Shown here in pieces: positions 21,789-39,156 of a DNA stretch of 64,000 nucleotides. Source of the stretch: a virus; IMG/VR virus record IMGVR_UViG_3300008259_000009; one strand, 5' to 3'. The notes beneath the pieces were generated by a model. It searched no databases. It saw only the letters and a list, made by a program, of their open reading frames with translations, and was not told the origin of the DNA. The translations under genes were made by a program, and so were the position numbers. The stretch's first letter is position 1. Each line of letters opens with the position of its first letter.

Positions 21789-22048
21789 GGGGGTGTTTTT
21801 TGGTTTTGACAGGTATCGGCTGAAGAATAAGGGCACGTGGGGACTGAGTTAATCTCCTTAAAAACTGATTCAGAAAAACAACTGGCAATGTGCTAAACAA
21901 AATGGAAGCTATCGGATTAATCCGTACTTCTGTTTTTGGTCAAATAAAAATCAAATATTTTGGGGTATTAGAAAATACCAACCTAAACGTGTAGTCCTTA
22001 TCTGACAGGATGTTATGGACAAGGGTTCGACTCCCTTCACCTCCACCA
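21789..22048 (+). ncRNA. ssrA: tmRNA, compact 260 nt
   Basis: 5' GGGGGTG...TTTTGAC; 3' AAGGG-TTCGACT-CCCTT-CACCTCC-A-CCA; G3-U70 Ala identity; AACT-GGC resume context. Confidence 0.92.
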
Positions 22049-23099: not shown

Positions 23100-23820
23100 A
23101 AAGAACGCTGAGATTACACGTTTTATTGAGAACCTTTAGAGTCATTATTGCTTCTACTCCTATCCACTTCCTTTTGAGAAGTATTTCTCAGTGACGGTTA
23201 TTTAGGTGAACCACTCCTTGAGGTCTAATCTACTCTCCTATTACTCAACTCTCTTTGAGGATGCCTCCCCAACTAGTCCTTGCGGGATTAGAGGTCTTTG
23301 GTAAAAATACACTCAGCCTTGGGAGCTTTGTGTGCCGTGAACAGCTCACGACTAGGTAGTCACCTTTAAACTAGACCTGACGGACACTTTTCCTTACTGA
23401 TTAAATTAGTTTCATAATTTTTTCATAGGTTTTGTGTCGTGGATTGTGAAAGTAGTGGTCCGCCCACGAGCCAACTCATCTTTTGAACGAGCCGATACTC
23501 AACTACTCTCTGAAATGTCCCCATCTCCATATTTTAAGATTACTTCGTGATTAACTCCTTGGTAGAAGTTTATCAAGGTTAGTAACGACACCACTCGTAC
23601 ACTAACATACCTTTCGGTTTTAAGTACCCTCTGATATTGGGAAACGCAATAATAGAATCGGATAATCCTATGTTTTGCAATATCCCTACGAGTTATTCCT
23701 ATTGGTGTTCCCACCTCAATCAGACGACCCACATCGCCCAATCATCTAACCACTTTCCCTACACTGCCATTTACTCGGTGGATAATATCACCGACACTTT
23801 TGTGTTTCCTGAATGGATAT
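23100..23820 (-). ncRNA. Large ornate ncRNA, GOLLD-like (~720 nt)
   Basis: No credible ORF; more GC-rich than flanks; many hairpins; long-range helix 23434-23439/23792-23797; promoter and boxA-like motif upstream; tRNA-like element and terminator downstream. Confidence 0.65.
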
Positions 23821-27223: not shown

Positions 27224-28234
27224 TTATTCGTATTTTAATAAAAATTTATTTGATATCACTTTGAATGAGATTTTTCTGTCTAAGGTTCTAATCACAATAC
27301 CTTCTCTATCGTAGTTAGGATTTAACTCTGATTTACTATCTGCAAATTTTAATAACTCATCAATAGTGTCAGGTAGTTTGAAATTAGTGTCTAACACGGG
27401 TACGGTTTCCAAACCTAACATCTCTACAGTATCTTTAAACTCAGTTAACGAAGAATACTCCTGAGTATCAATATTATACAAGTTGAAGCATCTTATGGTT
27501 TGCCCTTTAATTTTATATGGATTCCCTTGCACCGATTCTCCAATAAGTTCTGCCTGAATTGAAATGTTTTTACCCAAAGATTTCATTTTATTCTCCAAGT
27601 TTAATTCACGAGCAACTTTCCAAAATGTATTACCCTCAGTTTCCAACAATTCCAAGTTACGAGAACAAACCCCAAACTCACCATTTCTTAAATAGAATGT
27701 TGCGGAAGACCCATCCAATTTCTCGGTCACATAAAACTTATGGTCAGATGTTCTGTATTCCTCGTATTCGGATGTCAAGTTCTGAACCCTTTCTTCATCT
27801 GTCTTGCGTAAAAAAGACGGGAACAAACCTTTTACCTTGCCAGCCAATTCAGCGGGAACTGGTGGTTCGTATTTAACAATACCCAATACTTCAGTAACAT
27901 CTTGTCCTTCATGAAATGCTTCGCCAAAAGGTAAAATGTGGATTGGTAAAATCAAACCCTGAGACAATTGTCCTCTCAATCTAATTGTCTTTAAACGGAA
28001 TCCTTCTTGGTCTCCCATTTTTTTGTGGGAACTTTTTCTTAAAAACTCAAATTCCTCTCTGATTGGTAAGAAGGAATCCACCTCGCAGTAAACAACTAAA
28101 TCACCAACCTTATGGTTAACATCTTTTGCTACAACAACTTTCCACCCATCAATTGTCGCAACCTCAATTTTGTCGGCACCCTCAATTGGAGATAAATCAC
28201 TAATCTTTCTAATGCTCGCTAATTTCCTTTCCAT
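27224..28234 (-). CDS. RNA ligase, DRB0094/Rnl2-like
   Basis: N-terminal IEGADKIEVATIDGWKVVV; motif I TEKLDGSS; QAELIG; REGIV; FKVISN. Confidence 0.9.
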   Translation of the reverse strand: MERKLASIRKISDLSPIEGADKIEVATIDGWKVVVAKDVNHKVGDLVVYCEVDSFLPIREEFEFLRKSSHKKMGDQEGFRLKTIRLRGQLSQGLILPIHILPFGEAFHEGQDVTEVLGIVKYEPPVPAELAGKVKGLFPSFLRKTDEERVQNLTSEYEEYRTSDHKFYVTEKLDGSSATFYLRNGEFGVCSRNLELLETEGNTFWKVARELNLENKMKSLGKNISIQAELIGESVQGNPYKIKGQTIRCFNLYNIDTQEYSSLTEFKDTVEMLGLETVPVLDTNFKLPDTIDELLKFADSKSELNPNYDREGIVIRTLDRKISFKVISNKFLLKYE

Positions 28235-29960: not shown

Positions 29961-30620
29961 TTATCCCACAACTCCTTTCATTTCTTCAGTATGGTGGTCC
30001 CAACTCATCTCAGATTGGATTGGTCTGTTTTTCAACAACGGAACGCATTCACGGATTACATTGTAAGGACGAAACTCAGGGTGACCATCCATACCAACAT
30101 CCATTCTTTTACCTTTACCAAATCTTAAATCAGTAGGTAGGTGACAGTGACCATGCAAGTGCATAACACCTTTGCTCAAACCATCCCAAGAACTGATTGG
30201 GTAGTGCATCAATCGGATTGTATAGTCATCAATTTTTAAGGTGTTGTAATACTCCACCGATTTGAATATCCCACGAATACCCTCACGGTTTTTCTCAATG
30301 TGAGTATCGTGGTTTCCCAAGATGAGGTGAATGTTTTTACAAACCAATCGGTCCCAAAATTCTTTGATGGATTCAAAACCACCAAAGGACCAATCACCAA
30401 GGCAAATTAAAATATCATCTTGCATAACAACCTGATTAATGTTGTTAACAATTGCGGCATTCATTTTAACCAAATCAGGATAATCCCTTGTTTGTTTTGT
30501 TGGGATTTCACCATTCTCCAAGCGCCAATTTGTAAGACCACGACAAATGTTTTTGTGGTTATAATGGGGGTCAGAAAACACCCAAACATCTCCTTTAAAA
30601 TCTTTCTCTATTTTAATCAT
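29961..30620 (-). CDS. Calcineurin-like metallophosphoesterase
   Basis: SDPHYNH, LGDW, GNHD, HLHGHCH. Confidence 0.9.
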   Translation of the reverse strand: MIKIEKDFKGDVWVFSDPHYNHKNICRGLTNWRLENGEIPTKQTRDYPDLVKMNAAIVNNINQVVMQDDILICLGDWSFGGFESIKEFWDRLVCKNIHLILGNHDTHIEKNREGIRGIFKSVEYYNTLKIDDYTIRLMHYPISSWDGLSKGVMHLHGHCHLPTDLRFGKGKRMDVGMDGHPEFRPYNVIRECVPLLKNRPIQSEMSWDHHTEEMKGVVG

Positions 30621-31958: not shown

Positions 31959-32369
31959 TTAATCTACTGTATGTTCAATTTGTACTCTTACACAATTTTG
32001 TGGTAATCTGTTGATATGACGATAATTGTTGATATAACCCATAATGTTCGCACTACCGATAGCGTTTGCCGAGTGAGTATATACATCAACAACTGGTTTA
32101 CCTTCCATCCATTGAGAAACCAACCATTTGGCAGCATCGTAACCTGTCTTTTCGGTGATGTTATCATAATTTAATTCATAGTTATGATAAACATTGTTAT
32201 GCCATTCTCTCATAGCGGTATCACCCAAATCGTGGTCCAATGAAATAACCTCAATGTTTTCAAGACCAACTTTGTTAACCAAGTCAACAAAACTATCGTA
32301 GTTACGAGCTACGAGCCAACTTTTGTCTTTTGGACTTCTAACGTCGTCCAAATATATTTTCTTCTTCAT
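31959..32369 (-). CDS. Cyclic-phosphate-processing receiver-like domain protein
   Basis: Start MKKKIYLDDVR; ISLDHDLG; KTGYDAAKWL; HSANAIG. Confidence 0.75.
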   Translation of the reverse strand: MKKKIYLDDVRSPKDKSWLVARNYDSFVDLVNKVGLENIEVISLDHDLGDTAMREWHNNVYHNYELNYDNITEKTGYDAAKWLVSQWMEGKPVVDVYTHSANAIGSANIMGYINNYRHINRLPQNCVRVQIEHTVD

Positions 32370-32390
32370 AATACAAATATAATAAAAATA

Positions 32391-32481
32391 AAACACACTC
32401 TCAGGCATTCTGGGTCTCGCACCCGACAATCCATCTTATTTAACCCTTTGGGGCGATACGGGTACCTGAGTTGATGTGTTT
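32391..32481 (-). ncRNA. Unidentified structured RNA A
   Basis: Nested helices AAACACA/TGTGTTT and CTCAGGTA/TGCCTGAG enclosing CCC/GGG and GGGT/ACCC hairpins. Confidence 0.55.
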
Positions 32482-32483
32482 TG

Positions 32484-32557
32484 TGGTCCTTGTAGGGCTT
32501 GAACCTACGACCCCTTGATTATGAGTCAAGTGCTCTGACCAACTGAGCTAAAAGACC
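32484..32557 (-). tRNA. tRNA with CAU anticodon (elongator Met or Ile2)
   Basis: Cloverleaf; CTTGA-CTCATAA-TCAAG. Confidence 0.9.
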
Positions 32558-32564
32558 TAAAAAA

Positions 32565-32756
32565 AGTTTCTTTCGTCCTCAACCCAGGTCGGGCAAACTT
32601 TCAGTCCATCTCTGTTAAAATGTGTGTTTCCACTGTATCTAATACAACCTACTTTCCCAGTCGTTCTCCCTATACGACAATGTACGTTCCCCTACGGACA
32701 TCACTCCGTTTCTCATTATGTGGGGCACACTAGGGGGTGATGAACCCTACCTCGTG
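32565..32756 (-). ncRNA. Unidentified GC-rich intergenic RNA B
   Basis: GTCGT/ACGAC and GTG-GAAA-CAC hairpins; no ORF. Confidence 0.35.
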
Positions 32757-32846
32757 TAGTCAGGCAAGGACTTGAACCTTGAACGCCGTTTTTAACTCGG
32801 CCTCTCCACTTAAATGGATATCGTCTACCAATTACGCCACCTGACT
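32757..32846 (-). tRNA. Atypical tRNA-Leu(UAA)-like
   Basis: AGTCAGG/CCTGACT acceptor, Leu-type D arm, long variable arm; irregular anticodon stem around TTTAAG. Confidence 0.6.
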
Positions 32847-32853
32847 AAAAAAA

Positions 32854-33013
32854 TGGTGGAGATTTGCGACCAACATAGAATCACCCCTATGTCTCGTTTC
32901 ATTACGTCTTTGGTACTCCACCGTTGTAAGTTCCTCTTACCTTACACCCCCATTCGTGGGACTCCCGAATTCCCCAATGGTTGTTACTGTACTACCAGGA
33001 ATCAAGTAACCGC
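32854..33013 (-). ncRNA. Unidentified structured RNA C, including a 69-nt GGTGGAG...CTCCACCA element
   Basis: 7-bp terminal helix 32855-32922, ACATAG/CTATGT, GTAAG/CTTAC and ATTCG/CGAAT hairpins. Confidence 0.45.
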
Positions 33014-33016
33014 TCG

Positions 33017-33132
33017 TCGTCAGGGAGGGATTCGAACCCACAATGAGCAACCTTATAACTTCTCGCGCCCAAATTGCTCTTGGACCGTGGTGTCTTTCGG
33101 ACTCGGTACCATACCTCATTACGCTCCTGACT
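33017..33132 (-). ncRNA. Expanded tRNA-like RNA 1 (116 nt)
   Basis: GTCAGG/CCTGAC acceptor and GTGGG-TTCGAAT-CCCTC T arm; enlarged D and anticodon regions. Confidence 0.65.
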
Positions 33133-33150
33133 AACCATATGAACTATTTG

Positions 33151-33223
33151 TGGAGGTACAGGTAATCGAAACCTGATTTGTAGAATGCAAATCTACCGTA
33201 ATACGCCATTATACGATACCCCC
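33151..33223 (-). tRNA. tRNA-Ala(UGC)
   Basis: GTAGA-TTTGCAT-TCTAC; G3-U70. Confidence 0.9.
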
Positions 33224-33236
33224 ATAATTTTAAGTG

Positions 33237-33309
33237 AGCGGGTGGAGGGAATCGAACCCTCATCCTTAGAGTGGAAGTCTAATATAATAATCCATTATAC
33301 GACACCCGC
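33237..33309 (-). tRNA. tRNA-Gly(UCC)
   Basis: TTAGA-CTTCCAC-TCTAA. Confidence 0.92.
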
Positions 33310-33313
33310 TTAA

Positions 33314-33501
33314 AAAATGAAACTGTCCTTTCATTCGGGTTTTTACTGATGGTTTGTTCCCCATCACCTGTTGTGTGGCCACACAGAGCAGGGTCCTAAA
33401 CAGAGTATCTTGGGTCATTTCACACTTCGGTTGGGTAGCTACTCCCATGAAGCCAAGATTCCTTTCATCCGTGCTAATCGGACTTCTGTCAGTTTCATTT
33501 T
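33314..33501 (-). ncRNA. Unidentified multibranch RNA D (188 nt)
   Basis: 12-bp closing helix AAAATGAAACTG/CAGTTTCATTTT with four internal arms. Confidence 0.65.
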
Positions 33502-33502
33502 G

Positions 33503-33586
33503 TACTCGGAGAGGGAGTCGAACCCTCACTCCCGTCTGGGAACGGCAGCTTAAATGCAGCGTGTCTACCAATTCCACCATCCGAGC
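33503..33586 (-). tRNA. tRNA-Leu(UAA)
   Basis: Leu D arm, TTTAAGC loop, long variable arm. Confidence 0.88.
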
Positions 33587-33590
33587 ATTT

Positions 33591-33678
33591 GAGGTTGAGA
33601 AGTCCTCTGCGTTGTAAATACTGTTAATTGCCTAACTTTATTTATTATTCGTATTCCTTTCTCAAGGGAACAACACAA
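33591..33678 (-). ncRNA. Kissing-loop RNA E
   Basis: Two hairpin loops with complementary TTGAGAA/TTCTCAA. Confidence 0.55.
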
Positions 33679-33703
33679 TGTATTTCAAAGAACTAATGTT
33701 CAG

Positions 33704-33775
33704 TAGTCGGTACGGGATTCGAACCCGTGTGACAAGAATGAAAATCTTGTATCCTAACCCCTAGATGAACCGACC
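33704..33775 (-). tRNA. tRNA-Glu(UUC)
   Basis: CAAGA-TTTTCAT-TCTTG. Confidence 0.92.
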
Positions 33776-33996
33776 AGATTGTGACAACCTTTGGGGTAAG
33801 TTGTCACATTTACGTGAATGGAGAGGCCAATCTCGCTAATATCACGGGTTCAGATTCGTCACGCCAATCTTCTCTCCTAAAAACGTTAGTTGTTTCTCGT
33901 AAAACTAAAAAAACCGACCTTGATACCTTGTAACCCCCCTTTAAAGTGCGTGTTACCATCCTTTCTCAAGTAGAACTCTACTGCTTACACTCCCTG

Positions 33997-34068
33997 CGGT
34001 CCATGCGAGAATCGAACTCGCGGCTCATCCGTGACAGGGATGAATGTTAGCCACTACACCAATGGACC
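33997..34068 (-). tRNA. tRNA-Asp(GUC)
   Basis: CATCC-CTGTCAC-GGATG. Confidence 0.92.
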
Positions 34069-34069
34069 A

Positions 34070-34375
34070 AAAACCACACTTTAAAACCATATAGGTACAA
34101 CTCCTGCGGCCTGCGTTGTTCATCTCAATAGGTTGATAGTGATGGAGTACCCATCTCGCTCCAATCTTAACTGCTTCATCTGAGTTTTCTCAGGGCCCTG
34201 GCAGGGGGTTTTGACACTATATTACCTTACAACTACTCCGTCGACTTTCATTGTAAGAGTGACCACTATCAATATTTTTTTATGTGATGCAGTAGTTGAC
34301 AATCGCACTCGTTTCACCATCTATTGTCAACAGGTCTATGAACTTAACGAGTTCACCTTTTCTTACCACCACATT
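34070..34375 (-). ncRNA. Unidentified structured RNA region G
   Basis: 9-bp helices 34133/34272 and 34295/34331, plus CTTACAA/TTGTAAG, CTGAG/CTCAG, GATGG/CCATC and TGAAC/GTTCA stems. Confidence 0.55.
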
Positions 34376-34397
34376 TTTTACTTTCAAAGAACTTATT

Positions 34398-34428
34398 CAA
34401 AGATATGGGTTTCATTTTAAATTGCCAA
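34398..34428 (-). promoter_or_regulatory. Bacteroidota-type promoter followed by boxA-like motif at 34384-34392
   Basis: TTG-N20-TATCTTTG then GTTCTTTGA. Confidence 0.75.
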
Positions 34429-34586
34429 ATCTTTTTTCATGTGTTAGTATCATTACTCCATAGTTAAATACTTAGTGTTGCCTCTTACAGTTACCACTCT
34501 GATGCGGAGCACATCAATTCATCACACGCTTTACAGAATTTTTTCCTTGTTCTGTTAAAATAATTTACAACACAATATTTTAAAAA

Positions 34587-34809
34587 TGGTAAGACCTTAA
34601 GATTTACTCATTCGTGGGTCACCCCATCCTTACTACCTATACCTCGCCTTTAACATCCGTTCTACCCAAACCATCGTTTTTACCTGTTAACCTCTCGGAA
34701 AACTTTGAGTACCTCCTCAACCTTTTAATCTGATAGGGGCTCCGTCTTGCTCGTTATTTCTAACTCCCTGTGGGATTCTGCTGATATAGGTCTATCTGCT
34801 ATCTTACCA
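34587..34809 (-). ncRNA. Unidentified structured RNA H (223 nt)
   Basis: TGGTAAGA/TCTTACCA closing helix, CCTATA/TATAGG, GTTA-GAAA-TAAC, TTGAG/CTCAA; preceded by boxA-like motif at 34820-34828. Confidence 0.6.
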
Positions 34810-34893
34810 ATCTAATATGTCAAAGAACTTTTTCTTTTTGGGAGGACAGGTCCCACTCACATCATCAACCCTGTCCCCCCGTCTTTCATATTA

Positions 34894-34924
34894 CAAATCT
34901 AAGTATTCTATTTTAGACTGCCAA
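34894..34924 (-). promoter_or_regulatory. Bacteroidota-type promoter
   Basis: TTG-N20-TAGATTTG. Confidence 0.75.
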
Positions 34925-34945
34925 ATGTTTTTTTACTTTTTTTTG

Positions 34946-35027
34946 TACCCTCGGTGGGATTCGAACCCACACGCTCTTGGAGCATTAGTTCCTAAAACTA
35001 ACGTGTCTACCATTCCACCACGAAGGC
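34946..35027 (-). tRNA. tRNA-Leu(UAG)
   Basis: TTAGT-TTTAGGA-ACTAA, long variable arm. Confidence 0.92.
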
Positions 35028-35034
35028 ATTGTTG

Positions 35035-35107
35035 AGGTCTCTAACGGATTCGAACCGTTATCTCTGGGTTACAAAACCAGAATAATAAGCCATTATACTA
35101 AGAGACC
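35035..35107 (-). tRNA. tRNA-Thr(UGU)
   Basis: CTGGT-TTTGTAA-CCCAG, one stem mismatch. Confidence 0.82.
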
Positions 35108-35170
35108 TTATTTACACCGATATGTCAAAGAACCGTTTGTTTTACAAATGTATAAAAAATAAACATACAT

Positions 35171-35205
35171 AAAACAAAAAACCCCTCTTTTTTGGAGAGG
35201 GGTTC
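35171..35205 (-). terminator. Intrinsic terminator after leader peptide 2
   Basis: AACCCCTCT-ccaaaaa-AGAGGGGTT then TTTTGTTTT. Confidence 0.8.
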
Positions 35206-35225
35206 TTAAAATATTATTATTTAAG

Positions 35226-35303
35226 TTAACATACCTTCTCCGTTACAAAGGGCTTGTCCCCCTCCGTTCTCGCGTCTAAAAGTATGTTAAGTAAATTTTT
35301 CAT
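35226..35303 (-). CDS. Candidate leader peptide 2 (25 aa)
   Basis: Manually translated MKNLLNILLDARTEGDKPFVTEKVC; directly upstream of a terminator and the Thr/Leu/Asp/Glu/Gly/Ala tRNA cluster. Confidence 0.6.
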   Translation of the reverse strand: MKNLLNILLDARTEGDKPFVTEKVC

Positions 35304-35351
35304 TGTCTTTTTAATTAAATATATCAGAGTTTTTAAAAGTATCAAGGTTTT

Positions 35352-35684
35352 TTATTTTTTATAAAACCAAAAAGAGTTTTTACCACAATTACCAAGTTTA
35401 AATAAACTACCTTCAAAGACATCATTTAATTTTTCAATAACTTCTTCGGCAATTTCTTCAGTATCCTCACCTGATTGTTTAAATTTGACCATAAATCTAT
35501 CGTATGGTTTATCTGAGGATTCACGGTGACCACCAATCCATTCATCTTCACCAACGTAATCGTCCATAAGTTTGTTTAACTCAGATTCAATTTTTTTATT
35601 TGATGGGTCTTTCTTACTTTCATTGATTACTCGTTTAACAAATCTTGTTAAATCCGATTCTGTTAGCCTAATTACTTTTTTCAT
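35352..35684 (-). CDS. Hypothetical protein with shared N-terminal LTES motif, inside the tRNA array
   Basis: True start MKKVIRLTESDLTRFVKRVINE at 35684 with TATTTAT upstream. Confidence 0.75.
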   Translation of the reverse strand: MKKVIRLTESDLTRFVKRVINESKKDPSNKKIESELNKLMDDYVGEDEWIGGHRESSDKPYDRFMVKFKQSGEDTEEIAEEVIEKLNDVFEGSLFKLGNCGKNSFWFYKK

Positions 35685-35718
35685 ATTAATAAATATTGCA
35701 ATTGGTATAAAAAATAAT

Positions 35719-35837
35719 GTCCAGGTGTGGGAATCTAACCCACTTAGTCCATATTCGTTGCTTGTACGTCTGGGCAATTTATTGTTAGGACCGTCCCATT
35801 CGTCAATGGGGTGTGTAACACAATCCACCTACCTGAA
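35719..35837 (-). ncRNA. Expanded tRNA-like RNA 2 (119 nt)
   Basis: TTCAGGT/ACCTGGA acceptor, GTGGG-TTAGATT-CCCAC T arm, extra CCCATT/AATGGG hairpin, extended GTCC/GGAC arm. Confidence 0.65.
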
Positions 35838-35848
35838 GGTTTTATGTG

Positions 35849-35931
35849 TGGGATGTGATGGAGTCGAACCACCCGAGTCCGAAGACAAACGATTTACAGT
35901 CGTTCCCGCTGCCCCTACGGTATAACATCCC
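35849..35931 (-). tRNA. tRNA-Tyr(GUA)
   Basis: AACGA-CTGTAAA-TCGTT, long variable arm. Confidence 0.92.
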
Positions 35932-35939
35932 AAGTTTAG

Positions 35940-36070
35940 GAAATCAGAAGATGGTTGTGTGGACATCTGATTTTACGATTGGCATTACTTTGGTGTATAT
36001 CTCCCAACTCCGATGATACTGACCGATATACACTCTCGTGTCATTAGTATCACCCTTCCCCAATCAACCT
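35940..36070 (-). ncRNA. Pseudoknotted RNA I
   Basis: Crossing helices 35993-36001/36025-36033 and 36014-36020/36046-36052 inside GATTGG/CCAATC. Confidence 0.6.
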
Positions 36071-36074
36071 ATTG

Positions 36075-36147
36075 CGACTCAGACAGGACTCGAACCTGTA
36101 ACGTTCACATTAACAGTGTGATGCTCTCCCAATTGAGCTACTGAGTC
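36075..36147 (-). tRNA. tRNA-Asn(GUU)
   Basis: TCACA-CTGTTAA-TGTGA. Confidence 0.92.
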
Positions 36148-36153
36148 ATTTTG

Positions 36154-36225
36154 CGCGTCTCCAAGGACTCGAACCCTGACCAAGAGATTTGGAGTCACTT
36201 ATGCTTGCCGTTACACCAAAGACGC
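36154..36225 (-). tRNA. tRNA-Trp(CCA)
   Basis: AGTGA-CTCCAAA-TCTCT. Confidence 0.88.
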
Positions 36226-36251
36226 AAATAATGAAATTAATTATTTCATTG

Positions 36252-36325
36252 AGGACAGAGAGGGATTTGAACCCCCGAATAATGGATTTGCAGTCCACCC
36301 CTTTAAACCACTCAGGCATCTGTCC
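36252..36325 (-). tRNA. tRNA-Cys(GCA)
   Basis: GTGGA-CTGCAAA-TCCAT, U73. Confidence 0.92.
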
Positions 36326-36336
36326 TTGTTAATTTG

Positions 36337-36406
36337 TTTAGAGGTTGGTTTACATTCAGTGACCATGACTTGTACTTCGTCTCAAGGGGTAAACCCTATA
36401 CCTCTA
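36337..36406 (-). ncRNA. Unidentified ~70-nt structured RNA J
   Basis: AGAGGT/ACCTCT, GGTTTAC/GTAAACC and CTTG/CAAG nested stems. Confidence 0.45.
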
Positions 36407-36409
36407 TTG

Positions 36410-36560
36410 TGACCCCAATGGGAATCGAACCCACCTTGTTAACTACATATAAGATGCTTTGACCTAAGTGACCCATATACTAGTACTACGGGTGCCAACT
36501 ACAAATTATCATCGTTAACCCACTCACCGCTTCGGTTGCGACCCTAACAGTTATGGAGTC
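36410..36560 (-). ncRNA. Expanded tRNA-like RNA 3 (151 nt)
   Basis: GACTCCA/TGGGGTC acceptor, GTGGG-TTCGATT-CCCAT T arm, GTTAAC/GTTAAC extended arm containing ACCCG/TGGGT. Confidence 0.65.
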
Positions 36561-36566
36561 GTATTG

Positions 36567-36638
36567 TAGCCCCTGTAGGACTCGAACCTACACTATCTTG
36601 TATGTAAAACAAGCGCTTTTCCTTTAAGCTAAGGAGCT
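36567..36638 (-). tRNA. tRNA-Val(UAC)
   Basis: CTTGT-TTTACAT-ACAAG. Confidence 0.92.
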
Positions 36639-36645
36639 ATTTTTG

Positions 36646-36720
36646 TATCCCCGAAGAGATTCGAACTCTTGACCCCTCCATTAAAAGTGGAGTGCTCTAA
36701 TCCTGCTGAGCTACGAAGAC
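36646..36720 (-). tRNA. tRNA-Lys(UUU)
   Basis: CTCCA-CTTTTAA-TGGAG. Confidence 0.92.
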
Positions 36721-36726
36721 ATTTTG

Positions 36727-36799
36727 TTGTGATGGAGGGATTCGAACCCCCGTAAACTATCGTATCAGGATAGCCCCTACACCGCTCGGGCACATCACA
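36727..36799 (-). tRNA. tRNA-Ile(GAU)
   Basis: CTATC-CTGATAC-GATAG. Confidence 0.88.
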
Positions 36800-36816
36800 G
36801 TTTTAGTTTCTTGGAA

Positions 36817-36848
36817 CAAATATAACCGTTTTTTGGTATATACCGCAA
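36817..36848 (-). promoter_or_regulatory. Bacteroidota-type promoter
   Basis: TTG-N21-TATATTTG. Confidence 0.65.
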
Positions 36849-36855
36849 CATTATA

Positions 36856-37674
36856 CTAATTTTCTTTTTCTTTTTTTCTGTCTTTATATGTTTTATTTAC
36901 TTTATGTTTAGCAACCTCATCGTTAAAGTCAGATATTTCTTTATCAGTTATATTATTAATTCTGTTATTGGCGTTGATAATATATTCCTCAGATATATCA
37001 ATCCCAAAATAGTTATGCCCTAATAGTTTAGATGCAACCGCTGAAGTTCCACTACCCATATATGGGTCAATAATGTCACAACCTTCTTTATCATCCAATA
37101 TTGAGTAAATACATCTTGTCGGTATTTCAATTGGAAATGGTGCGGGATGATTAGATACCGTAGATTTATTCATTTCAGGTCGTAATCTCCAAACTGATGT
37201 CATTAATGCATGTTTAGATTTTAATTCCTCACCATTATCTTTTTTATTTATTGGTTTGTACAACCAATAAATTCTTTCCTCCACTTGCCAAAATCTCCAA
37301 CCTCTAATATTTGCGGCAATTTGTCTATCCCAAATTATTTCTTGTTTAACTGTCCAATCAGTTTTTTTTAACCAATCCATCGGATGAAACATTTCTCCTT
37401 TATCCCATCTAATTTTATGGTTATAAAAGAACGAACCTCCAGGTTTAATAACACGAAACAATTCGTTTAGTATTTCAATTTGCTCTATTTGGTATTCAGA
37501 TTCATTTTTATTATCCGTAATATCCGAATATTTAATATCCTTAACCAAGACACCTTTTCTATTGTTTTGTTTATTATAAGGTGGGGATGTTACACCCATA
37601 TCAAAAATGTTTTCATCAAGTGTTTTTAAAACATCATACACATCACCAAGTACTATATTGTTTTTAATTTCCAT
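36856..37674 (-). CDS. Beta-class N4-C/N6-A DNA methyltransferase
   Basis: VTSPPYN catalytic motif before DPYMGSG SAM motif; HPAPFP. Confidence 0.92.
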   Translation of the reverse strand: MEIKNNIVLGDVYDVLKTLDENIFDMGVTSPPYNKQNNRKGVLVKDIKYSDITDNKNESEYQIEQIEILNELFRVIKPGGSFFYNHKIRWDKGEMFHPMDWLKKTDWTVKQEIIWDRQIAANIRGWRFWQVEERIYWLYKPINKKDNGEELKSKHALMTSVWRLRPEMNKSTVSNHPAPFPIEIPTRCIYSILDDKEGCDIIDPYMGSGTSAVASKLLGHNYFGIDISEEYIINANNRINNITDKEISDFNDEVAKHKVNKTYKDRKKEKEN

Positions 37675-38272
37675 ATTCAATCAACGATTTAAAAAACGGT
37701 TTTGTAAATTTATGTTCATATTCACTAATCATAGGTGAAATATATTCAAGTCTAAACGAATCTGAATTTTTAAAGTGTAAGTAACTAAATTTAACACTTC
37801 TAACATATCTATTTAATTCATCACCGTTTGGTAAGTGTTTAGTTAATTGCCGTTCTATTTCATTTACAAAATCAACTGAGTTATATTGGAAACTTACTAA
37901 AAACAATAATTTACCATCTAAAAACCCCGACACTACCATTTTAACTTTATCATCTTTATATTTTTTGTGTCTTTTCCATGTAAAGTCACTGAAATTACCT
38001 GAACCGTCAAACTTTTTAGTTGAATCTGATGATAAATTCTTTGGTTTAACTTCAATTGGGTATTCGTCAGAATCGTACCCTAATTTGTGAACACTTTGTT
38101 TTACCCCTAAAATCCCCAATGTCACCCCTTCTCTAAATAATGAGGAATTTTTATCATTAGACATCTCATTAAGTAACCCTAATAATAACGTTTCTTTGGT
38201 TTTGTCATCAAGTTCTAATATTTTAGAATTATCTCCTAATGAATAGTTTAATTTTAATTCTGATAGATTCAT
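37664..38272 (-). CDS. Putative type II restriction endonuclease (PD-(D/E)xK)
   Basis: GYDSDEYPIEVKPK motif; stop overlaps the MTase start. Confidence 0.6.
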   Translation of the reverse strand: MNLSELKLNYSLGDNSKILELDDKTKETLLLGLLNEMSNDKNSSLFREGVTLGILGVKQSVHKLGYDSDEYPIEVKPKNLSSDSTKKFDGSGNFSDFTWKRHKKYKDDKVKMVVSGFLDGKLLFLVSFQYNSVDFVNEIERQLTKHLPNGDELNRYVRSVKFSYLHFKNSDSFRLEYISPMISEYEHKFTKPFFKSLIEYGN

Positions 38273-38333
38273 ACAATACATTTTTAACAAAGTACGTAAA
38301 TAAAATAAATTATTCAATACCATTAATTTTTTG

Positions 38334-38408
38334 TAGGGTAGACAGGACTCGAACCTGCACTATGTCCTCATCCCAAATGAGGCGGCCTACCAATTGGCCA
38401 ACTACCCT
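38334..38408 (-). tRNA. tRNA-Pro(UGG)
   Basis: CCTCA-TTTGGGA-TGAGG. Confidence 0.92.
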
Positions 38409-38414
38409 ATATTG

Positions 38415-38484
38415 TACCGAGTATGGGGATTGAACCCACTTGACCATCCTTATGAGAGATAGTTCTTTACCACTAAGCCTCGGT
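38415..38484 (-). tRNA. Degenerate tRNA-Met(CAU), 70 nt
   Basis: CTCATAA loop and T arm present; about 3 nt missing at the acceptor/D-arm junction. Confidence 0.55.
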
Positions 38485-38491
38485 ATCTCAG

Positions 38492-38580
38492 CGGAGAATG
38501 TGGGATTCGAACCCACGCATCATGTTTCAGACCTATCACGTTAGCAATGTGACCCCTTAAACCATCTTGGGTAATTCTCC
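38492..38580 (-). tRNA. tRNA-Ser(GCU)
   Basis: TCACA-TTGCTAA-CGTGA, long variable arm. Confidence 0.92.
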
Positions 38581-38584
38581 GTAG

Positions 38585-38656
38585 AAGTCTCTGAAGGATT
38601 TGAACCTTCTCTAAAACATCCGTAGTGTTTCGTGCTGTCCGTTACACCAAGAGACC
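38585..38656 (-). tRNA. tRNA-Arg(ACG)
   Basis: AAACA-CTACGGA-TGTTT. Confidence 0.92.
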
Positions 38657-38662
38657 AAAGTG

Positions 38663-38736
38663 GGTAACTAATGGGAATCGAACCCATGGCACAAGGAACC
38701 ACAATCCTTTGCTCTACCTACTGAGCTATAGCTACC
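38663..38736 (-). tRNA. tRNA-His(GUG)
   Basis: AAGGA-TTGTGGT-TCCTT; encoded G-1:C73. Confidence 0.92.
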
Positions 38737-38756
38737 ATAAAATTTTATTTTCTATG

Positions 38757-38829
38757 TGGAGAGGGTGGGAATCGAACCCACATTGCTGGATTTTCAGTCC
38801 AGTGCCTTGACCAACTTGGCAACCTCTCC
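38757..38829 (-). tRNA. tRNA-Phe(GAA)
   Basis: CTGGA-CTGAAAA-TCCAG. Confidence 0.92.
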
Positions 38830-38835
38830 TTATTG

Positions 38836-38909
38836 TTGTCCTGGAAGGATTTGAACCTCCAATTTCCTCGTTCAAAGCGAGGTGACTTTGCCAGTTCGTC
38901 TACAGGACA
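38836..38909 (-). tRNA. tRNA-Gln(UUG)
   Basis: CCTCG-CTTTGAA-CGAGG. Confidence 0.92.
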
Positions 38910-38915
38910 GTGAAC

Positions 38916-39053
38916 TCACTTTTTGAGTTTTTTTAAAATCTTTTTTAAAAGTTTTGATTTTACTTTAATTTTAATCCCTTCTTTTCTTAAATTTTCCTGA
39001 CTTGAGTTGAAGGTCCCCTCAAGTACAATTTTAATAGTTTCTTTTTTTCCCAT
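38916..39053 (-). CDS. Small basic peptide (45 aa)
   Basis: Manually translated MGKKETIKIVLEG...KLLKKILKKLKK; amphipathic Lys-rich tail. Confidence 0.45.
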   Translation of the reverse strand: MGKKETIKIVLEGTFNSSQENLRKEGIKIKVKSKLLKKILKKLKK

Positions 39054-39069
39054 AATTTATTTTTTAGCG

Positions 39070-39156
39070 AGGAGGGTGTGGGACTTGAACCCACAAGACC
39101 TATTACACGTCTTACTCGTTTTCAAGACGAGCTCTTCATCCAGCCAGATACCCTCC
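39070..39156 (-). tRNA. tRNA-Ser(UGA)
   Basis: CTCGT-CTTGAAA-ACGAG, long variable arm. Confidence 0.9.

Follow-up and report, generated by a model that had tools for sequence, protein, structure and literature searches.

The 64,000-nucleotide (nt) stretch of viral DNA filed as IMG/VR record IMGVR_UViG_3300008259_000009 – the window, by which we mean the whole of that stretch – contains an array of transfer RNA (tRNA) genes. Among these genes lie three elements, here called c1, c2 and c3, that have the acceptor stem and T arm of a tRNA and lack an anticodon loop of 7 nt. A preliminary description, drawn from the sequence alone, had taken them for oversized tRNA-like RNAs built on one architecture. 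The elements are real, lie where that description placed them and occupy the minus strand; they represent three separate families, with tRNA ends in common and nothing more, and are widely distributed among uncultivated T4-like giant phages of fresh water.

Three tRNA-shaped RNAs within a tRNA array

32483–39156, minus strand: tRNA array, 23 tRNAs called by ARAGORN, with c1, c2 and c3 embedded
33017–33132, minus strand: c1, 116-nt tRNA-shaped RNA, long form with insert variant A
35719–35837, minus strand: c2, 119-nt tRNA-shaped RNA
36410–36560, minus strand: c3, 151-nt tRNA-shaped RNA

The three elements are closely fitted into the array: c3 starts 5 nt after tRNA-Val, c2 10 nt after tRNA-Tyr and c1 17 nt after tRNA-Ala. 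A terminator-like hairpin (35207–35177, minus strand) divides the array into two units, with c3 and c2 upstream of it and c1 downstream. In related loci every member of the three families has the same orientation as the tRNA closest to it (17/17, 5/5 and 23/23), and many begin 3–10 nt downstream of one. All 23 array tRNAs encode N73 and C74, the next base being usually A, rather than the full CCA; N73-C74 is likewise encoded by c1 and by every one of the 18 c3 sequences described below, which fits a shared 3′ maturation with completion of the CCA. A CCA-type nucleotidyltransferase gene is present in two of five related complete genomes.

Standard searches do not recognize these RNAs. ARAGORN calls none of the three as a tRNA, whether run without introns or with introns of 0–200 nt, and none as a transfer-messenger RNA (tmRNA). 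Rfam returns no match to any of them at gathering threshold, and none to YrlA, group I introns or ribozymes; at E≤10 the sole hit is that of the tRNA model to c1, which scores 14.2 bits where 29 are required, with no tRNA match on c2 or c3. The cloverleaf with a 5-base-pair anticodon stem and a 7-nt loop that goes with an RF00005 score of at least 29 bits and an ARAGORN call is thus missing from all three, removal of an insert leaves no canonical tRNA in any of them, and they have no resume codon, tag frame or pseudoknots of the tmRNA kind. The features that had first drawn attention are all legible in the sequence: acceptors of 6–7 base pairs, T arms that begin GUGGG and carry the loops listed below, and 3-nt linkers before the T arm (AUU in c1, UAA in c2, AAG in c3).

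We scanned both strands of the window (128 kb) for a T arm whose immediate 3′ neighbour can pair with a 7-mer 60–230 nt upstream. The scan recovered the tRNAs, c2 and c3, along with one chance oversized solution under the strict rule (33705–33919, a second solution for the T arm of tRNA-Glu) and one under a relaxed T-arm rule (37242–37428); c1 escapes it because of its two mismatches. A blastn search of c1–c3 against 50,697 phage records, T4 included, gave nothing. Relatives came instead by way of the small protein encoded between c2 and tRNA-Thr (35352–35684), which led to 77 IMG/VR loci, many with tRNA arrays, and then to further members by BLAST and motif scans; a 219-amino-acid neighbour protein used as query retrieved no related loci. 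We found no description of the c1, c2 or c3 family in the literature.

Structure and conservation of the three families

The strongest evidence that these are genuine structured RNAs is comparative. Counts of compensatory change in what follows are drawn from related genomes and do not represent independent events; as controls, pairing partners were slid along the alignment and, for c3, sequences were shuffled (n=500). The c3 family is the best documented:

36560–36554 with 36417–36411, then UA, minus strand: acceptor GACUCCA/UGGGGUC, 7 base pairs including one U·G
36551–36526, minus strand: extended D arm with inner hairpin
36519–36438, minus strand: long rod arm of four stacked helices with internal loops GAUG/AAGUA and an apical hairpin, then AAG
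36434–36418, minus strand: T arm GUGGG-UUCGAUU-CCCAU
36410, minus strand: A73

Members occur in 20 IMG/VR contigs and in the related loci L067 and L173. Our alignment (A4) comprises 18 distinct sequences of 140–153 nt, with no short allele among them. In the eight-helix structure 95.5% of cells are paired, against 34–47% in the slid controls; compensatory changes are seen at 25 of 37 pairs, and none of the 500 shuffles reached the observed values. The acceptor itself covaries freely, while A73 is kept in 17 of the 18 sequences. A conserved GAGUGG junction (GAGUGGGU) follows the D arm, and sequence conservation is strongest inside the rod, in the apical hairpin CUCC-UUAAUACUAGGAUC-GGAG and in the internal loop GAUG/AAGUA, which, judged from its sequence, looks like a bulged-G (loop E) motif. 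Part of the apical hairpin also resembles the 3′ end of 16S rRNA, and its loop has a CUAG palindrome; both are very short matches.

The window copy of c1 belongs to a more variable family:

33131–33126 with 33024–33019, minus strand: acceptor GUCAGG/CCUGAC, 6 base pairs plus an A1·G72 mismatch in the 7-base-pair register
33115–33105, minus strand: hairpin GGUA-UGG-UACC
33104–33045, minus strand: arm GAG-U-CC...GG-UUG-CUC
33098–33053, minus strand: arm loop region, 46 nt, including a 41-nt module
33041–33025, minus strand: T arm GUGGG-UUCGAAU-CCCUC, one U·U mismatch
33017 (N73) and 33016 (C74), minus strand: 3′ end

The c1 motif is present in 82 IMG/VR contigs. A scan of bacterial genomes for it returned a single 10-kb contig of a metagenome-assembled genome, probably itself phage, and thus no clue to the host. 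Among copies whose ends could be defined by script there are two size classes, one of 75–78 nt (about 24 copies) and one of 116 nt (28 copies). The short form runs from the acceptor through the conserved unpaired motif GCGUAAUGA, a hairpin GGCA-NGG-UGCC, the arm GAG-U-CC/GG-UUG-CUC and the AUU linker to the T arm; its arm loop varies from 5 to 10 nt and is not a 7-nt anticodon loop. In this form 95.7% of cells are paired (slid controls, 33–48%), 13 of 22 pairs show compensatory change, and the acceptor sequence, as in c3, covaries freely across the family. The long form differs by the 41-nt module inside the arm loop, which exists in two sequence variants, A and B, whose alignment to one another is uncertain. 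Most relatives are free of both the A1·G72 and the T-stem U·U mismatch of the window copy.

The third family is rare:

35837–35831 with 35726–35720, minus strand: c2 acceptor UUCAGGU/ACCUGGA, 7 base pairs including one U·G
35810–35795, minus strand: invariant hairpin CCCAUU-GACG-AAUGGG
35792–35746, minus strand: long arm with basal stem GGUCC/GGACU and second stem UUGC/GCAA
35743–35727, minus strand: T arm GUGGG-UUAGAUU-CCCAC, with the unusual loop UUAGAUU

Homologues are known from two contigs of IMG/VR and from six of metagenomes, of which one is identical to the window. Between the acceptor and the invariant hairpin lies a D-like stem-loop, GUG/CAC, with a conserved loop. With five distinct sequences (alignment A7), compensatory change is found at 10 of 31 pairs and supports the acceptor, the D-like stem, the CCCAUU-GACG-AAUGGG hairpin, two helices of the long arm and the T arm. 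Here, too, there are size classes, of 118 and 135–138 nt, the larger having an extra conserved hairpin, CGAUUCGAAUCG.

Compensatory changes are present in all three families. That the three are divergent copies of one plan is a different matter. A covariance model (R1) built from the c3 family finds true c3 members only – 129 bits in the window, 139 in L067 and 105 in L173 – and scores c2 at 22.7 bits, the level of an ordinary tRNA (24.9 for tRNA-Val); it gives no match to c1, nor to the T4 tRNA region (L001). The internal pairings first proposed fare unevenly in the same comparison. Family data support CCCATT/AATGGG and GTCC/GGAC in c2 and GTTAAC/GTTAAC in c3, whereas the bases assigned to GTC/GAC in c1 and to ACCG/CGGT in c3 belong, by covariation, to other helices. 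A further suggestion, GAGCAA/TTGCTC in c1, cannot be a conserved pairing because neither insert variant B nor any short form contains GAGCAA; in these, UUGCUC pairs with the upstream GAG-U-CC.

A larger group on a tRNA-Leu scaffold

An additional member of the array bears on the origin of c1:

32757–32846, minus strand: odd class II tRNA, called tRNA-?(Stop|Leu) by ARAGORN, 34 bits with the Rfam tRNA model

This 90-nt RNA, which adjoins c1, is Leu(UAA)-like; its D arm is of the Leu type, and its anticodon loop, UUUAAG, has 6 nt. Candidate roles are those of a crippled tRNA-Leu(UAA), a reader of frameshifts or stops, or another non-decoder. It is likely to be the evolutionary link between c1 and tRNA-Leu. 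The acceptor AGUCAGG/CCUGACU, common to c1 and to this scaffold, marks a large group of RNAs of 86–157 nt in related loci, including L143, L067, L046, L022 and L113 (for example L143:8690–8822 and L113:5188–5344). The group comprises 105 distinct sequences, some of the longest of which may be false joins, with several paralogues per phage and up to seven copies in one locus. Their middles are hypervariable, some being nonetheless conserved between contigs, and many members keep the canonical tRNA-Leu D arm GUGGCGGAAUUGGUAGACGC, the T arm ACAGG-UUCRAAU-CCUGU and A73. The c1 element and several short forms carry AGUCAGG...CCUGACU and ACAGG-UUCGAAU-CCUGU; they do not carry GUGGCGGAAUUGGUAGACGC, in whose place stand GCGUAAUGA and the GGCA-NGG-UGCC hairpin. 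The acceptors and D regions of c2 and c3 differ from those of the group.

Other features of the window

The window encodes a Gp23-type capsid protein, a Gp20-type portal and a T4-type terminase, which, with other encoded proteins, identify the phage as a distant relative of T4; genes for ClpB and Hsp70 are also present. Related IMG/VR contigs measure 250–320 kb, and blastn of the array found no close relative among deposited phage genomes. Several further features lie in or near the array:

21789–22048, plus strand: short tmRNA, Rfam 109 bits, missed by ARAGORN
23105–23510, minus strand: GOLLD RNA, Rfam 328 bits
26369–27178: GIY-YIG/NUMOD3 homing endonuclease
27224–28234: RNA ligase
29961–30620: metallophosphatase
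31959–32429: protein with a cREC cyclic-phosphate receiver domain
33341–33402, minus strand: freshwater-1 RNA (Rfam)
33776–33995 and 34069–34944, minus strand: long array stretches with neither a tRNA nor a convincing open reading frame, in which several structured RNAs had been proposed
35352–35684, minus strand: 110-amino-acid protein
38416–38484, minus strand: 69-nt tRNA, missed by ARAGORN and just below the Rfam cut-off (28 bits)

GOLLD is found in the related loci L067 and L049 as well. The ligase, metallophosphatase and cREC genes form an RNA-repair-like set adjoining the array, and the homing endonuclease beside them recalls segB of the T4 tRNA region. The loop of the 69-nt tRNA, CUCAUAA, suggests a CAU anticodon (Met or Ile2). 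Many small proteins of freshwater giant-phage contigs, with several paralogues per genome, open with the first 25–30 residues of the 110-amino-acid protein (MKKVIRLTESDL...). In the array of one related contig a group I intron (L059:5037–5224, Rfam 80 bits), which presumably interrupts a tRNA gene, lies about 60 nt upstream of a c2 homologue; no such intron was detected in the window.

Discussion

What the locus presents directly is a set of genes with conserved structures, set in a tRNA array and lacking a decoding loop; from this we infer the processing, stability and partner binding of their products. The c1–c3 elements do not read codons, since they have no anticodon loop. Phage tRNA clusters are usually read as helpers in codon usage or as spares against anticodon nucleases, but non-decoding RNAs that are conserved across many phages must do something other than decode. 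We think it probable, on comparative sequence evidence, that c1–c3 are genes for stable tRNA-shaped RNAs that are matured by the tRNA machinery and whose swapped-in arm is the working part.

The following course of events would account for their form. The three RNAs would be transcribed as parts of the array. RNase P, 3′-trimming and CCA-adding enzymes are known to recognize the minihelix of acceptor stem and T arm, and it is for this reason that we regard the conserved helix as a maturation handle, through which the host tRNA maturation machinery would release and stabilize the RNAs: RNase P would cut the 5′ end, and loss of the 3′ trailer and completion of the CCA would follow. The arm that stands where a tRNA has its anticodon region would then offer its conserved loops to a partner. 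In c3 this arm would be the rod of four stacked helices, in c2 the long arm beside the invariant GACG hairpin, and in c1 the short arm with its optional 41-nt module.

As to the partner, our best guess is that c1–c3 bind or titrate a factor that recognizes the upper half of tRNAs, for example a host toxin or enzyme that targets tRNAs. The earlier suggestion of a decoy for anticodon nucleases is improbable, since these RNAs have no anticodon loop to serve as bait; they might act as decoys for factors that recognize the acceptor end or the elbow.

Several observations weigh against so functional an interpretation. Minimum-free-energy folds of the single sequences are not unusual (z from −0.7 to −1.2), the c2 relative in L032 has a poorly paired acceptor, and the window copy of c1 may be weakened by its two mismatches, which fall in otherwise conserved helices. 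Nor does any protein gene consistently adjoin c3 – the best cluster is present in 4 of 19 loci – so that no partner was found by this route. The alternatives considered below draw partly on the same facts.

One alternative holds that these are tRNAs that are charged and do not decode: loaded by a synthetase blind to the anticodon – leucyl-tRNA synthetase (LeuRS) for the Leu-derived group that includes c1, or other enzymes that read the acceptor – they would act as amino-acid donors off the ribosome or as synthetase sponges. The LeuRS of Escherichia coli does not read the anticodon, and the acceptor and T arm of c1 are those of a group that keeps the tRNA-Leu D arm and A73; in c3, A73 is nearly invariant and C74 always encoded. 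In c1, however, that D arm has given way to the GGCA-NGG-UGCC hairpin, and the free covariation of the acceptors in both families, c3 and c1, speaks against a fixed set of acceptor identity elements. Charging without decoding is possible, chiefly for the Leu-derived group; as an account of c1–c3 we consider it improbable.

A second alternative is that the elements are tRNA genes with short introns, whose transcripts would be made into working tRNAs by the phage RNA ligase or another splicing enzyme of host or phage – a possibility raised in the preliminary description. In both the c1 and the c2 family an extra module is present in some members and missing from others, and a group I intron lies in the array of a related contig. 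Genes for an RNA ligase, a metallophosphatase and a cREC domain protein are found in the window, and the tRNAs of Lak megaphages are reported to have ‘enigmatic’, highly conserved introns (PMC6784885). Against this, ARAGORN recovers no tRNA from c1–c3 when introns are allowed, and Rfam detects no group I intron or ribozyme in them. In T4, Pnk and Rnl serve tRNA repair, and the ligase set of the window fits that role. The natural short alleles of c1, whose loops vary from 5 to 10 nt, likewise have no 7-nt anticodon loop; and c3 is always long, its supposed insert carrying the strongest conservation and covariation of the whole RNA. The intron reading fails on these grounds – no recoverable canonical tRNA, short c1 alleles with no anticodon loop, and an insert that is the best conserved part of c3 – and we regard it as quite unlikely.

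It might also be argued that the elements are decaying tRNA pseudogenes, swollen by random insertions. The mismatches of the window c1, the imperfect acceptor in L032 and the weak folding scores are all consistent with decay. But each family persists in tens of contigs, and its compensatory changes clearly exceed those of the controls, shuffled and slid. Unpaired motifs are kept as well: in c3, GAGUGGGU and the apical loop; in c2, the GACG hairpin; and in c1, GCGUAAUGA. The covariation all but excludes this explanation, which we hold to be very improbable; here the preliminary description was right to prefer tRNA mimics, conserved with covariation and absent from Rfam, to decaying tRNAs.

Finally, that c1–c3 are bacterial-type Y RNAs (YrlA-like) tethering Ro60, or small tmRNA-like molecules, is scarcely credible: although both classes mimic the acceptor/T domain and c1 and c2 contain GGUCC stretches, the Y RNA reading fails on topology (Chen et al. 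in 2014 are said to have found that the 5′ and 3′ ends of YrlA form the Ro-binding stem and not an acceptor), on the absence of any YrlA match in Rfam, and on the absence of a TROVE/Ro60 gene from 5/5 related phage genomes (four of them 97–100% complete by CheckV) and of any Ro60 family match among the window reading frames scanned, while the tmRNA-like reading fails on every defining feature, neither Rfam nor ARAGORN finding a tmRNA in c1–c3 and the phage already having one at 21789–22048.

Comparison with known systems

We return to c1–c3 as stable, non-decoding RNAs with a tRNA-like upper half. The nearest precedent is RNAC of T4 (species 1 RNA, 139 nt), which with RNAD lies in the T4 tRNA cluster and, though known for decades, has no assigned function (PMC3014915, PMC9697503). 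As we read its sequence, RNAC has the T arm CCGGG-UUCGAAU-CCCGG and an acceptor-like closing stem with two U·U mismatches. Like c1–c3 it belongs to a T4-type phage and is encoded among the tRNA genes, in the same orientation; it is oversized, with a canonical T arm beside an acceptor-like stem, long hairpins in place of the D and anticodon arms, and no anticodon loop. The internal arms themselves differ from those of c1–c3; blastn detects no similarity between them, and the c3 model, the only one built, finds no match in the T4 region. The window elements thus match RNAC in location and plan, and not in sequence or model.

A second precedent comes from the Lak megaphages, which have oversized tRNA genes with ‘enigmatic introns’ (Devoto et al. 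2019, PMC6784885). These, too, are larger than expected, belong to the tRNA sets of giant phages and have inserts highly conserved between genomes. The likeness is drawn from the published description of the Lak genes, and there is a difference: the eukaryote mode of tRNAscan-SE assigned the Lak genes an anticodon and an intron, whereas ARAGORN with introns extracts no tRNA from c1–c3. The tRNA-like domain of tmRNA and YrlA share with c1–c3 the mimicry of the acceptor/T-arm half, with another functional domain in place of the anticodon region. The resemblance goes no further, since c1–c3 have no tag reading frame, no pseudoknot set and no Rfam match to tmRNA, and YrlA is permuted in topology relative to them, with no Ro60 gene in the relatives.

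A parallel in mechanism lies outside phages. In engineered ‘tRNA scaffold’ RNAs, and in the tRNA-miRNA encoded RNAs of the gammaherpesvirus MHV68, a tRNA-shaped part serves as a handle for the processing and stability of an RNA module unrelated to it; scaffold constructs carry their cargo where the anticodon stem would be, the position taken by the long arms in c2 and c3. The former are laboratory constructs and the latter products of a eukaryotic virus (PMC4337559), so that the comparison is an analogy of mechanism, with no homology. By that analogy the plan of c1–c3 matches the laboratory trick, found here in nature.

It is tempting to go further, and we do so tentatively. The c1–c3 families and the Leu-derived group might together represent a large natural repertoire of tRNA-scaffold RNAs in T4-like freshwater giant phages, in which processing, stability and recognition would all depend on the upper half of the tRNA as a universal handle, and the exchangeable arms would serve as effectors, such as inhibitors or decoys of host defence toxins that target tRNAs. 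If true, this would also explain the 50-year-old puzzle of RNAC. That RNA, a single sequence, gave no handle on function; the present families, each with a structure supported by covariation, offer experimenters comparative data to work from, along with defined conserved loops and size variants that occur in nature. Because they are absent from Rfam, current annotation misses such RNAs, or labels them ‘tRNA-???’ or pseudogenes. What is new, then, is not the single family of tRNA mimics first proposed but three undescribed families; the kind to which they belong was known already, through T4 RNAC and the ‘intron’ tRNAs of Lak phages.

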